Shown: piece after piece, positions 30,847-34,808 of the stretch | Layout of the letters: every line of letters starts with the position of its first letter | Position numbering within the stretch: the first letter of the stretch is position 1 | Source of the DNA: Escherichia coli | GTDB taxonomy: Bacteria; Pseudomonadota; Gammaproteobacteria; Enterobacterales; Enterobacteriaceae | Reading direction: 5' to 3' (one strand) | Assembly (NCBI RefSeq): GCF_003334355.1 | Contig: NZ_QOWP01000015.1 | DNA length: 64,000 bases | Translations under genes and position numbers: made by a program | Notes under the pieces: model-generated | The model's input: only the letters and a program-made list of their open reading frames with translations | The model's database searches: none | Told to the model about the DNA's origin: nothing

Positions 30847-31737
30847 ATGGATGCAAAACAAACGCGGCAGGGCGTATTACTCGCTCTTGCCGCTTATTTT
30901 ATTTGGGGTATAGCGCCAGCGTACTTCAAGTTGATTTACTACGTGCCCGCCGATGAAATCCTGACGCATCGCGTGATCTGGTCGTTTTTCTTTATGGTGG
31001 TGCTGATGAGCATTTGCCGCCAGTGGTCCTATTTAAAAACGCTGATTCAGACGCCACAGAAAATTTTTATGCTGGCAGTCTCTGCCGTGCTGATTGGTGG
31101 CAACTGGCTACTGTTTATCTGGGCGGTGAACAATCACCATATGCTGGAAGCGAGCCTTGGTTACTTTATTAACCCGCTGGTGAACATTGTGCTGGGGATG
31201 ATTTTCCTCGGCGAGCGATTCCGCCGGATGCAATGGCTGGCGGTGATTCTGGCGATATGTGGCGTGTTAGTCCAGCTGTGGACTTTTGGTTCGCTACCTA
31301 TTATCGCGCTGGGACTGGCATTTAGTTTTGCCTTCTACGGTCTGGTACGCAAGAAGATTGCCGTTGAAGCGCAAACCGGCATGTTAATTGAAACCATGTG
31401 GCTGCTGCCCGTGGCGGCAATTTACCTGTTTGCTATTGCCGACAGCTCAACCAGCCATATGGGGCAAAACCCGATTTCGCTGAATTTACTGCTGATCACC
31501 GCCGGTATTGTCACTACCGTACCGCTGTTGTGTTTTACTGCGGCTGCGACACGCCTGCGTCTCTCAACGTTAGGCTTTTTTCAGTACATTGGCCCGACGC
31601 TGATGTTCCTGCTGGCTGTGACGTTTTATGGTGAAAAACCGGGTGCCGATAAGATGGTGACCTTCGCCTTTATTTGGGTGGCGCTGGCAATTTTTGTGAT
31701 GGATGCGATTTATACGCAGCGTAGAACGTCCAAATAA
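30847..31737 (+). CDS. rarD: EamA/DMT-family permease RarD
   Basis: 296-aa 10-TM ORF recognised as RarD. Confidence 0.93.
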   Translation: MDAKQTRQGVLLALAAYFIWGIAPAYFKLIYYVPADEILTHRVIWSFFFMVVLMSICRQWSYLKTLIQTPQKIFMLAVSAVLIGGNWLLFIWAVNNHHMLEASLGYFINPLVNIVLGMIFLGERFRRMQWLAVILAICGVLVQLWTFGSLPIIALGLAFSFAFYGLVRKKIAVEAQTGMLIETMWLLPVAAIYLFAIADSSTSHMGQNPISLNLLLITAGIVTTVPLLCFTAAATRLRLSTLGFFQYIGPTLMFLLAVTFYGEKPGADKMVTFAFIWVALAIFVMDAIYTQRRTSK

Positions 31738-31831
31738 AAAATAAATATATTCTGAAAAAATATGCCGACTCTTGCATGAGAGTGGGCATATTGCCATGCT
31801 GACCGGAGACTCATACAAGGATGTAAAATTT

Positions 31832-32212
31832 ATGTTACGTATATTTATCCCAACATCTAACGGTAAGATTTCCAGACGTCGTTATATATTTTCATTTATT
31901 TTAATAAATTTCATTTTTGCCTTTCTTATTATCTTTTTTAACGATGGAGAAGCAGGCTTTCTTGTTATAGTCTCTACCATCGTACTCCATTATCTCGTCA
32001 TCAACATGAATTGCCAGCGACTCCGTGATAGTGGTTTCATCTATATAAAAACTTATGTTTTTGGTACATTAGCAGTATATATCATCTCTATCATCACAAT
32101 GATAGCCGAAGATTTTGCCTGTTCAGGCAATGGTTCGATGATTTTTTTGATTTGTTATTTTTCCACTTTCAGTATGCTAATGCTTGCACCTACTGATTCA
32201 TCAAAACAATAG
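31832..32212 (+). CDS. yigG: Small inner membrane protein YigG (function unknown)
   Basis: 126-aa hydrophobic ORF in low-GC DNA; start chosen at ATG 31832 ([12 protein letters not shown]) after AAGGA; in-frame upstream ATGs at 31772 and 31796 cannot be excluded. Confidence 0.7.
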
Positions 32213-32225
32213 TTATGGAGTATTT

Positions 32226-32606
32226 ATGAGTAAGGAATATATGAACGATGGTTCATTAAGTGAAAAATGGAAATACCGATTTAATTTTTATGATCAACAT
32301 GGTTTTCCTGGATTCTGGGGGGCAACACCAGAATATAAAGCAGCATTTAAAGCATTAAAAGTAAGACAACGCTTAACTATTCAAATGAATTTCATTGCTT
32401 TCTTCTGCTCCTGGATATATTTATTTGTCCTTGGGTTATGGAAAAAAGCAATTATAGTTCTATTACTTGGTATTCTATCTCTATTTGTTGGTGCACTAAT
32501 TGGCGTTAACATTCTGGGAATTGCCGTAGCAGCCTATGTTGCTGTTAACACGAACAAATGGTTCTATGAGAAAGAGGTAAAAGGGTTAAATACCTGGAGC
32601 CTTTGA
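32226..32606 (+). CDS. yigF: Small inner membrane protein YigF (DUF2628-like, function unknown)
   Basis: 126-aa ORF from ATG 32226 (MSKEYMNDGSL) after GGAG RBS, 13 bp after the yigG stop; two predicted TM helices. Confidence 0.75.
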   Translation: MSKEYMNDGSLSEKWKYRFNFYDQHGFPGFWGATPEYKAAFKALKVRQRLTIQMNFIAFFCSWIYLFVLGLWKKAIIVLLLGILSLFVGALIGVNILGIAVAAYVAVNTNKWFYEKEVKGLNTWSL

Positions 32607-32612
32607 ATAACA

Positions 32613-32650
32613 GGTGGCTTAGCCAGACTAAGCCACCGCTCTCGTTTTTT
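32613..32650 (+). terminator. Intrinsic terminator after yigF (overlaps the corA stop)
   Basis: Hairpin gtggcttag-ccaga-ctaagccac followed by a T-run. Confidence 0.55.
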
Positions 32651-33599
32651 ACAACCAGTTCTTCCGCTTAAAGTACAGATACGGTGCCAGGCCCGCGAGG
32701 ATCATAAAGATAATCGCGCCTGGGTAGCCGAAACTCCACTTCAGTTCTGGCATAAACTCAAAGTTCATCCCGTAGCTGGAGGCAACCAGCGTTGGCGGCA
32801 GGAACACGACGGATACCACCGAGAAAATTTTGATGATGCGGTTCTGCTCGATGTTGATAAAACCCATTGCCGCCTGCATCAGGAAGTTCACCTTCTGGAA
32901 CAGGGATTCGTTATGCGGCAGCAGGGATTCGATATCTCGCAGGATTTCACGCGCCTGCTCCAGTTGCCCACCCGGTAAACGCGCTTTACGCACCAGGAAG
33001 TTGAGCGCACGCTGGGTATCCATCAGACACAGGCGCACTTTCCAGCCGATATCTTCCAGTTCCGCCAGAGTGGAGAGCGCCTCGTCGTACTCATCGCCCT
33101 GATGCCCTTCCATAATCACCCGGCTCAACTGCTCCAGGTCGCTATAGATATTTTCAATTTCATCTGCCAACTGTTCGATTTTGGTTTCGAACAGATCCAG
33201 CAGCAGCTCGTAGGCGTTACCGTCCACCATCGACTGGCTACGGGCACGCATACGATACAGACGAAAAGCGGGCAGTTCACGCTCACGCAGAGTAAACAGA
33301 CGACCATCACGGATGGTAAATGCCACAGTGGAGTTACCGGCGTGATCTTCCGCATCTTCAAAGAAGAAGAAGGAGTGAATATGCAGGCCGTCGTCGTCTT
33401 CAAAGAAACGTGCCGATGCTTCGATGTCTTCCAGTTCCGGGCGGGTTGCCAGGCTCTGACCAAGTTCAGATTGTACGCGCAGTCGCTCGTCGTCGTCCGG
33501 TTCGACAAGATCAATCCATACTGCATTTACAAGGGGTTGTGACTCTTCGACTTCCAGCCGGGTCAGTCGGTTATTTTCCAGTTGAAATGCGCTCAGCAT
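32649..33599 (-). CDS. corA: Magnesium/cobalt transport protein CorA
   Basis: Track ORF to 33614; recognised 316-aa CorA begins [15 protein letters not shown] at ATG 33599; C-terminal GMNF motif and two TM helices. Confidence 0.95.
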
Positions 33600-33968: not shown

Positions 33969-34733
33969 ATGGCGCATCGGCTACTCATTGGTAAAGGAAT
34001 GATCACCTTGAATCTCAAACGGATTTTTCTCGCCCTCACCTTACTTCCCTTGTTTGCTGTTGCCGCTGATGATTGCGCACTCTCAGATCCGACGCTGACC
34101 GTACAGGCGTATACCGTTAATCCTCAAACAGAGCGGGTGAAAATGTACTGGCAAAAAGCCAATGGCGAAGCGTGGGGAACGTTACATGCTCTGCTGGCGG
34201 ATATGAATAGTCAGGGTCAGGTGCAGATGGCGATGAACGGCGGCATCTATGATGAAAGCTATGCGCCGCTCGGTTTGTACATCGAAAACGGTCAGCAGAA
34301 GGTGGCGTTAAATCTCGCTTCAGGTGAAGGGAATTTCTTTATCCGTCCTGGCGGCGTGTTTTATGTCGCGGGAGATAAAGTCGGCATCGTTCGTCTGGAT
34401 GCCTTCAAAACCAGTAAAGAGATTCAGTTTGCGGTGCAGTCAGGGCCAATGTTGATGGAAAACGGTGTAATTAATCCGCGTATTCATCCCAACGTCGCCT
34501 CACGTAAAATTCGTAACGGTGTTGGGATTAATAAACATGGGAATGCCGTGTTTTTGTTGAGCCAGCAGGCGACAAATTTTTATGATTTTGCCTGTTATGC
34601 CAAAGCGAAACTGAACGTTGAGCAGCTGCTTTATCTTGATGGCACGATTTCACATATGTATATGAAAGGCGGGGCAATCCCGTGGCAACGCTATCCTTTT
34701 GTCACCATGATTTCCGTCGAGCGGAAAGGTTAG
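33969..34733 (+). CDS. yigE: DUF2233-family exported protein YigE
   Basis: 254-aa ORF with N-terminal signal-like hydrophobic segment; synteny corA-yigE-uvrD. Confidence 0.85.
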   Translation: MAHRLLIGKGMITLNLKRIFLALTLLPLFAVAADDCALSDPTLTVQAYTVNPQTERVKMYWQKANGEAWGTLHALLADMNSQGQVQMAMNGGIYDESYAPLGLYIENGQQKVALNLASGEGNFFIRPGGVFYVAGDKVGIVRLDAFKTSKEIQFAVQSGPMLMENGVINPRIHPNVASRKIRNGVGINKHGNAVFLLSQQATNFYDFACYAKAKLNVEQLLYLDGTISHMYMKGGAIPWQRYPFVTMISVERKG

Positions 34734-34772
34734 AATGATAGTTTTGTGTCAGATACTAAATATGGTGCTGAT

Positions 34773-34808
34773 GCCGGATGCGACGTAAACGCCTTATCCG
34801 GCCTACAT
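34773..34808. repeat. REP element between yigE and uvrD
   Basis: gccggatgcgacgtaaacgccttatccggcctac REP core. Confidence 0.7.

Follow-up and report, generated by a model that had tools for sequence, protein, structure and literature searches.

The AT-rich yigG-yigF gene pair of Escherichia coli as a cassette of a putative modular recombination hotspot between rarD and corA

The genes yigG and yigF, which lie side by side between rarD and corA in the Escherichia coli chromosome, are long-standing "y-genes", and both the pair and its AT-rich, H-NS-silenced nature are already known. The islet is among the 78 H-NS-bound "promoter islands", with yigF-yigG shown in Figure 1 of that work (PMC3661553), and a small extended protein occupancy domain (EPOD) with H-NS-type silencing lies over the two genes (10.1101/2020.01.29.924811). 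Moreover, yigG has been described as a horizontally acquired gene with an AT-tract-dependent intragenic promoter repressed by H-NS, studied on a fragment called "yigG 1.2" (PMC7229825). Here, we analysed the pair in a 64,000-nucleotide stretch of E. coli DNA (RefSeq assembly GCF_003334355.1, contig NZ_QOWP01000015.1; hereafter, the window), where it fills the block 31738-32648. The primers printed in PMC7229825 are found without mismatch at positions 31983-32008 and 32108-32132 of the window, which places the published fragment at 31983-32132 on the + strand.

According to this literature, the islet is coated by H-NS in K-12 and has spurious promoters rather than regulated expression. The yigG-yigF block is thus itself a published example of H-NS promoter islands and EPODs, being AT-rich, dense in promoter-like sites, H-NS-bound and poorly transcribed. 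Unlike H-NS xenogeneic islands, it is syntenic across genera, and the island hallmarks (integrase, transposase, tRNA, att) are absent from it. At the protein level, the closest described families are DUF805 (PF05656; E. coli YhaH/YhaI, COG3152) for YigG and DUF2628 (PF10947) for YigF, two large families without an assigned function. At the level of the locus, the closest system is the DUF3289-DUF943 cassette, in which DUF3289 is a colicin-M-like toxin neutralised by DUF943 and linked to type VI secretion systems (T6SS) (PMC11148199, PMC12469244). This is an alternative or additional AT-rich two-gene cassette found in the same rarD-corA spacer. It is absent from the window and has no sequence or fold relation to YigG and YigF, which carry neither a toxin domain nor a secretion marker.

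Our reading of the locus is that yigG-yigF is a bicistronic operon for two unrelated small polytopic inner-membrane proteins. The operon would form "slot 1" of a modular rarD-corA hotspot, as an old AT-rich cassette of xenogeneic type, and it may act as a dispensable accessory module of the envelope. Taken as a whole, we give this explanation an even chance of being right.

The gene order around the islet is recQ-pldA-yigI-rarD-yigG-yigF-corA-yigE-uvrD, as in the E. coli chromosome, and DNA 100% identical to positions 31700-32700 is annotated in RefSeq as rarD, yigG, yigF, and corA. After the rarD stop at 31737 come yigG (31832-32212, + strand; an open reading frame, ORF, of 126 aa matching NF008474/PRK11371) and yigF (32226-32606, + strand; an ORF of 126 aa matching PF10947), followed by corA, which is convergent to yigF and has its stop codon at 32649-32651. 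Both ORFs are intact and are separated by 13 bp. Each has its own Shine-Dalgarno sequence, AAGGA at 31817-31821, 10 nt 5' of the ATG, for yigG and GGAG at 32217-32220, 5 nt 5' of the ATG, for yigF; the tandem arrangement given in the original prediction is therefore confirmed in its details. A minimal start-stop ORF, ATGTAA, is also present at 31821-31826, where it shares the final base of the yigG Shine-Dalgarno sequence and extends into the spacer that precedes the yigG start.

The base composition of the block departs clearly from that of both neighbours. In 300-bp windows, GC across 31700-32500 is 0.31-0.34 versus about 0.50-0.55 in the DNA to either side. For the 911-bp block 31738-32648, GC is 0.347, the minimum among all 911-bp windows of the 64 kb (median 0.530, 1st percentile 0.401). 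The GC at third codon positions (GC3) is 0.315 in yigG and 0.283 in yigF, 6-7 standard deviations (SD) below the value of 50 long ORFs of the window (0.591 ± 0.043). The codon adaptation index (CAI), with the window's own genes as the reference set, is 0.512 and 0.493, respectively, about 4 SD below the window genes (0.677 ± 0.044, minimum 0.551). The compositional break is thus far beyond chance, and the calculation leaves GC and codon usage clearly different from those of the flanks. Since the third codon positions are as AT-rich as the first and second, the break is not merely an effect of hydrophobic amino-acid composition.

Both proteins had been predicted to contain transmembrane helices and to be without an assigned function, and both statements hold. 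YigG matches over its whole length (residues 1-126) the NCBIfam model NF008474/PRK11371, a "hypothetical protein" (255.6 bits for a cut-off of 217, E = 1e-76). The match of the YigG of the window to Pfam DUF805 is weak (E = 0.023) and below Pfam significance; over nine YigG-type sequences, the DUF805 hidden Markov model (HMM) reached E ≤ 0.1 in 5/9 and E ≤ 0.001 in 2/9, the best value being 5.8e-5. The sequence contains four hydrophobic segments, and the AlphaFold2 (AF2) model is a four-helix bundle (predicted local distance difference test, pLDDT, 84; predicted template modelling score, pTM, 0.73). Beyond its own clade, its Foldseek neighbours in AFDB50 are nearly all DUF805 proteins, with probabilities of 0.9-1.0 and E-values of 0.1-2. 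In the alignment, an N-terminal (S/T)R..Y motif is kept and an R-x-R-D-x-G motif between helices 2 and 3 is invariant. On the positive-inside rule, the predicted topology is N-in/C-in, with two short acidic periplasmic loops. YigG is thus a highly divergent four-helix inner-membrane offshoot of the DUF805 fold, like the family in size, multi-helix build, motifs, and structural neighbours, but unlike it in the sub-significant match of the K-12 protein and in belonging to a tiny clade. A profile search of 1.84 billion representative proteins found 37 clusters at E ≤ 1e-3, limited to Enterobacteriaceae, and for most of the full-length members that were examined the partner is a DUF2628 gene. Outside such pairs, a distant YigG/DUF805-like gene without a DUF2628 partner was observed on a metagenomic plasmid-like contig (L097:1773-3671), in a row of small genes directly behind hha, hns, and a gene of the Pmp3 family, with a ParA gene near.

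YigF is an ordinary DUF2628 protein with a membrane hairpin. It matches PF10947 over residues 17-117 (E = 5.2e-10), and among its 138 Foldseek matches at E ≤ 0.001, the top 50 listed are nearly all annotated as DUF2628. The AF2 model (pLDDT 87.7) has a basic helical N-terminal part of ~55 residues, probably cytoplasmic, followed by 2-3 membrane helices: a short helix ends in an invariant LGLWKK and is followed by two long membrane helices. The conserved motifs are KW..RF.F, YLFxLGLWKK, and TN..Y.KEVKG, and YLFxLGLWKK and KEVKG are shared with homologues of Pseudomonas, Pantoea, and Actinobacteria. DUF2628 is widespread, unlike the YigG clade; only the Enterobacteriaceae copies on the corA side combine a YigG partner with extreme AT-richness, whereas the other copies are solo, have the GC of their host, and stand in varied contexts. 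A PATRIC entry calls yigF a "virulence factor", the basis being unstated. The equal length of the two proteins could suggest tandem paralogues; this was rejected, as BLASTP gave no alignment and hhalign a probability of 0.1%, and at the sequence level YigG and YigF are unrelated to each other. By sequence profile, no PDB relatives were found for either protein, and Foldseek against PDB returned none for YigF.

In Enterobacteriaceae, the two genes make up a bicistronic unit that is conserved and bound to the corA side of the locus. In the rarD-corA interval, a YigG-type ORF lies directly 5' of yigF in Escherichia whittamii, Escherichia sp. E1V33, Salmonella, Superficieibacter, Atlantibacter, and two Kosakonia species, and gene callers often miss it. 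An ORF with DUF805 motifs adjoins yigF in all of the 17 corA-side loci tested, against none of ~70 solo loci. More distant YigG-like proteins repeat the arrangement: two of them (P0215 and P0204) are followed by a DUF2628 gene and the corA 3' end, and a third (P0209, on a 1-kb contig) has a DUF2628 gene next to it. In one locus (L095), a LacI/enolase-superfamily gene takes the upstream place of rarD, and the two ORFs have 4 nt in common. No occurrence of the pair was found away from the corA 3' end or outside Enterobacteriaceae. About 70 YigF homologues are solo, in Pseudomonas, Pantoea, Budvicia, Leminorella, Dyella, Luteibacter, and Nocardia, the Pantoea megaplasmid copies being distant solo homologues of this kind. 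The solo neighbourhoods are heterogeneous, with no shared partner or context in Pseudomonas, Pantoea, Budvicia, Dyella, and Nocardia. Thus, to the question of whether the two genes always occur together, the answer is that they are fixed together beside corA, while YigF is solo elsewhere and O157-type E. coli strains have a YigG-like ORF without YigF. The partnership of YigG and YigF is likely, but not obligatory.

The constant position beside corA raises the possibility that YigG and YigF modulate a neighbouring transporter, either CorA (a Mg2+/Co2+/Ni2+ channel) or RarD. Every pair with a visible flank is convergent to corA and shares the hairpin region with it, even where the upstream neighbour is not rarD. 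Small membrane proteins that regulate Mg2+ transporters are known, MgtS and MgtR offering a precedent. However, the convergent orientation does not allow co-transcription, corA is 99-100% conserved in strains without the pair, the slot can hold unrelated cargo instead, and the solo YigF homologues are not near corA. We therefore regard a role as transporter accessory as highly improbable.

Both genes are kept intact by purifying selection. The ratio of nonsynonymous to synonymous divergence (dN/dS) is 0.14-0.27 for yigG and 0.03-0.18 for yigF, with YigG evolving faster than YigF, while the rarD and corA flanks have values of 0.01-0.10. The comparison includes pairs with a synonymous divergence (dS) up to more than 1. 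This result bears on the idea that the K-12 pair is a transcriptionally silent leftover of no present function, retained solely because it is rendered harmless by H-NS, whose AT-richness reflects mutation bias on unexpressed DNA. Such a relic would be coherent with the H-NS/EPOD coating, the very low transcription and the spurious intragenic promoters, with a codon adaptation about 4 SD below that of the window genes, and with the loss or replacement of the pair in about 46% of E. coli. The yigG pseudogene of BL21-type strains points the same way. It does not fit with two intact ORFs whose motifs are conserved and whose dN/dS stays at 0.03-0.27 up to dS > 1, nor with the persistence of the pair in at least six genera and the phenotypes of Salmonella deletion mutants, and we consider it improbable. 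The BL21-type allele was observed in T7Express (L004:2095-2475), where the annotation gives yigG as a pseudogene interrupted by an internal stop and yigF is intact.

We then evaluated the content of the rarD-corA spacer across 5,426 complete E. coli genomes. The yigGF pair is present in 2,955 of them (54%); about 564 of these 2,955 carry a second yigGF allele, ~81% identical in nucleotides, and 299 carry a "stacked" form with the order yigG-yigF-corA'(147 bp)-DUF3289-DUF943-corA. In 931 genomes, rarD is followed by a 52-nt yigG remnant, DUF3289, DUF943, and corA, a deletion derivative of the stacked form (L001). The O157/O55-type arrangement, in 1,433 genomes, consists of a 99/104-aa transmembrane ORF on the - strand, an unannotated 128-aa YigG-like ORF, corA', and DUF3289-DUF943; other haplotypes account, by subtraction, for about 107 genomes. 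The cassette of DUF3289 (YPO3983 family) and DUF943, at 4349-5690 in L001, 2623-3959 in L002, and 3239-4575 in L004, thus stands beside corA in about 49% of these complete genomes. The stacked and O157-type haplotypes have in front of it corA', a duplicated 147-bp fragment that forms a direct repeat of the corA 3' end and that has been removed in the 931 genomes of the deletion haplotype.

The O157-type cassette holds further variation. In E. coli KSC1031, the unannotated 128-aa ORF (L002:1879-2265, + strand) is a third YigG-like allele, 24% identical to K-12 YigG; it keeps the SR..F and KRIRDTG motifs and has no yigF behind it. RefSeq misses this allele of O157-type strains, at least in one such record inspected. 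Divergent from it lies the gene of a "hypothetical" 99/104-aa membrane protein (L002:1369-1683, - strand), found only in E. coli and Pseudocitrobacter. This protein was considered as a relative of YigG or YigF and rejected, as it shows no relation to either and no Pfam match.

The alleles themselves are deeply diverged. Between the two E. coli yigGF alleles, dS is 0.70 for yigG and 1.19 for yigF, versus 0.16 for rarD and 0.11 for corA in the same genomes; the two alleles are thus far older than their flanks, being 5-10 times more diverged. The cassette of E. whittamii is a mosaic, with yigG nearer to allele 2 and yigF nearer to the K-12 allele. In Atlantibacter (L009/L017:4429-4910), yigF is separated from the DUF3289 cassette by fragments of the corA 3' end (80 aa) and of the rarD 3' end (60 aa). 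These two fragments suggest that the cassettes represent alternative versions ("alleles") of the rarD-corA spacer which recombination in the flanks has stacked. More in general, the corA' and rarD' fragments, the yigG remnant, and two alleles 5-10 times more diverged than their flanks lead us to infer that cassettes have been exchanged, stacked, and deleted via recombination in the conserved flanks, and that the spacer is a modular recombination hotspot. Its "slot 2" carries the DUF3289 colicin-M-like T6SS effector with its DUF943 immunity protein, present in about half of E. coli and absent from K-12. The corA 3' end of K-12 has the variants of true corA and no corA' markers, and the K-12 arrangement may be the ancestral unstacked state, as in Salmonella; the alternative is a corA'/corA crossover that deleted slot 2.

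The original prediction had proposed a horizontal origin, and this claim stands in part. AT-richness with atypical codon usage, patchy presence (2,955/5,426), and dS values incongruent with the flanks are the traits expected of horizontally acquired DNA, and the xenogeneic character is borne out by the H-NS/EPOD literature and by the location at a swap site. A recent acquisition or a mobile copy is not. At the sequence level, the islet appears old and syntenic across genera, rather than a recent or K-12-specific acquisition. This synteny points to a long-standing resident whose turnover proceeds by homologous recombination, not to a recent insertion. The GC3 of the cassette is 0.28-0.44 in Escherichia, Salmonella, Superficieibacter, and Atlantibacter, and amelioration is far advanced in Kosakonia (GC3 0.54-0.59) and in a further locus, L094 (GC 0.51). 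Plasmid copies were considered and rejected: the two records inspected are chromosome fragments with the recQ-pldA-yigI-rarD...corA-uvrD synteny, and the other four close-identity plasmid records are either 4.9 Mb long or have the same identities. The two "phage" records are short pieces (1.6 and 3.5 kb) that bear no annotation. Among the close-identity records, there is thus no bona fide plasmid or phage copy of yigGF. A 1.5-kb contig labelled "uncultured Alistipes sp." (L011) is 100% identical to E. coli rarD-yigG-yigF-corA, and it is probably a contamination of a metagenome-assembled genome bin.

The islet had also been proposed as the most plausible place in the window for a toxin-like or phage-exclusion system, a suggestion which the searches did not bear out. 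Neither the PADLOC defence HMMs nor PHROGs returned any family at E ≤ 1 for YigG or YigF, Pfam gave no toxin or secretion domain in either protein, and no toxin gene adjoins the pair in the more than 20 pair-containing loci examined. The one indirect hint is the T6SS pair in slot 2 of other strains. A membrane toxin/antitoxin or abortive-infection pair, in which one protein permeabilises the membrane and the other restrains it, would be coherent with a variably present, AT-rich, H-NS-silenced two-gene operon for small membrane proteins. Besides the negative PADLOC and PHROGs results, many genomes have one partner by itself (solo YigF, or YigG-like ORFs without YigF), the BL21 yigG pseudogene lies next to an intact yigF, the single ΔyigG mutant of Salmonella is viable, and no association with mobile elements was found. 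This makes such a pair extremely improbable.

In a different explanation, YigG/YigF and hyp100/YigG-like-3 would be orphan immunity-like modules. They would neutralise membrane-targeting toxins of competitors, delivered by T6SS or contact-dependent inhibition (CDI) or acting as pore-forming bacteriocins, and would persist in the absence of a cognate toxin, as orphan immunity genes do. Immunity against pore-forming colicins and membrane-disrupting T6SS effectors usually takes the form of small polytopic inner-membrane proteins with minimal loops; such immunity proteins are often AT-rich and polymorphic too, and YigG and YigF are of this type. A T6SS effector/immunity pair occupies the same hotspot in 49% of E. 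coli, and in E. whittamii an orphan DUF943 gene (L014:4487-4975), 77% identical and without a DUF3289 gene, lies directly after yigF. The presence/absence polymorphism, the occurrence in one species of at least three deeply diverged slot-1 alleles (dS 0.7-1.2 versus 0.11-0.16 in the flanks, with a third ORF 24% identical), and the faster evolution of YigG than of YigF also count in its favour. On the other hand, no toxin gene stands beside the pair in more than 20 loci, dN/dS is well below 1, synteny is stable over several genera instead of turning over rapidly, and solo YigF homologues stand in unrelated, housekeeping-looking contexts. No homology of YigG and YigF to the described immunity proteins was detected (PDB by sequence, and Foldseek against PDB for YigF), and neither has a PADLOC match. 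The literature on DUF805 and DUF2628 offers incidental mentions only, with no link to immunity. We therefore hold the orphan-immunity explanation to be unlikely. Still more doubtful is its broader form, in which the slot-1 cassettes (the two deep yigG-yigF alleles and hyp100/YigG-like-3) would be orphan inner-membrane immunity modules or phage-exclusion factors kept under balancing selection beside DUF3289/DUF943, the spacer being a hotspot of interbacterial conflict.

We favour instead an accessory role in the envelope. YigG and YigF may cooperate within the inner membrane as a dispensable accessory module which, when expressed, would alter the envelope and the behaviour of the cell surface, and which would be neither a toxin nor a dedicated defence system. 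The suggestion comes from Salmonella, where ΔyigG mutants are affected in attachment, aggregation, and motility: attachment was reduced and, in one serovar, aggregation increased, with yigG down-regulated under chlorine (PMC3579871), and a mild hypermotility (1.36x swimming) was reported (PMC4219756). In addition, yigG was recovered in an ASKA overexpression screen for Ala-Ala tolerance, in the first round only (PMC10299036). Taken alone, this functional step, in which an inner-membrane accessory module under H-NS silencing in K-12 would change the envelope and the behaviour of the cell surface when expressed, is tentative, possible rather than probable.

Several points weigh against our reading. 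The functional step draws only on Salmonella yigG phenotypes, which are weak and pleiotropic. About 46% of complete E. coli genomes do not have the pair, and in BL21-type strains yigG is a pseudogene, so that any function is dispensable. The O157-type YigG-like ORF occurs without YigF and many bacteria have YigF without YigG, which is why the partnership was described above as not obligatory. Lastly, the invariable place beside corA could reflect nothing more than vertical synteny and need not mark a mobile unit.

The elements that flank the two genes were also analysed. The rarD-proximal spacer (31738-31821, + strand) is conserved in most haplotypes: an alignment of six haplotypes or species shows conservation up to about 84 nt past the rarD stop, the O157 type excepted. 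The first 84 nt of the spacer of the deletion haplotype (L001) match by 95% the BL21-type spacer that carries yigGF (L004), and by 96-99% the genomes with the K-12 arrangement. Being common to most haplotypes, this spacer is part of the rarD flank and not of the variable DNA. Just past the rarD stop, at 31760-31791, it includes an imperfect inverted repeat of 13 bp (ATATGCCGACTCT-TGCATG-AGAGTGGGCATAT), without a T-run, which is conserved in the E. coli haplotypes (O157 type excepted), Salmonella, and Superficieibacter, and which may be a 3' stem-loop of rarD or a protein-binding site.

At the other end, the terminator scan and RNA folding identified a bidirectional terminator-like hairpin region at 32613-32650 (both strands). 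The hairpin at 32613-32637 has a 10-bp GC-rich stem and folds on the + strand at -17.5 kcal/mol (z = -3.4), and the same hairpin folds on the corA strand at -22 kcal/mol (z = -3.4). On the + strand, a T6 run at 32645-32650 begins 7 nt past the stem and overlaps the corA stop, while the tail on the - strand (UGUUAUUC) is only weakly U-rich. The overlap with the corA stop had been predicted correctly; the 7-nt gap before the T-run makes it a sub-optimal intrinsic terminator on the + strand. The hairpin is therefore best described as a putative bidirectional terminator-like element shared between the convergent yigF and corA, and the alignment shows it conserved behind yigF in the other E. coli haplotypes that carry this gene (L003, L004, and L006). 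An Rfam search found no RNA element within the islet. Elsewhere in the window, between yigE and uvrD (34729-34803), it gave a sub-threshold match to naRNA4/CssrE, similar to repetitive extragenic palindromic elements (39 bits versus a gathering score of 59.5).

What is added here to the known AT-rich and silenced pair is the hotspot and allele picture of the rarD-corA spacer. As yigG and yigF form a conserved and selected unit, they are to be studied together. Furthermore, the presence at the hotspot of a validated T6SS pair next to a deep slot-1 polymorphism offers a testable choice between immunity or protection and an envelope accessory role. Should the reading of orphan immunity at a conflict hotspot prove true, it would give the first function for a DUF805-type and a DUF2628 protein.

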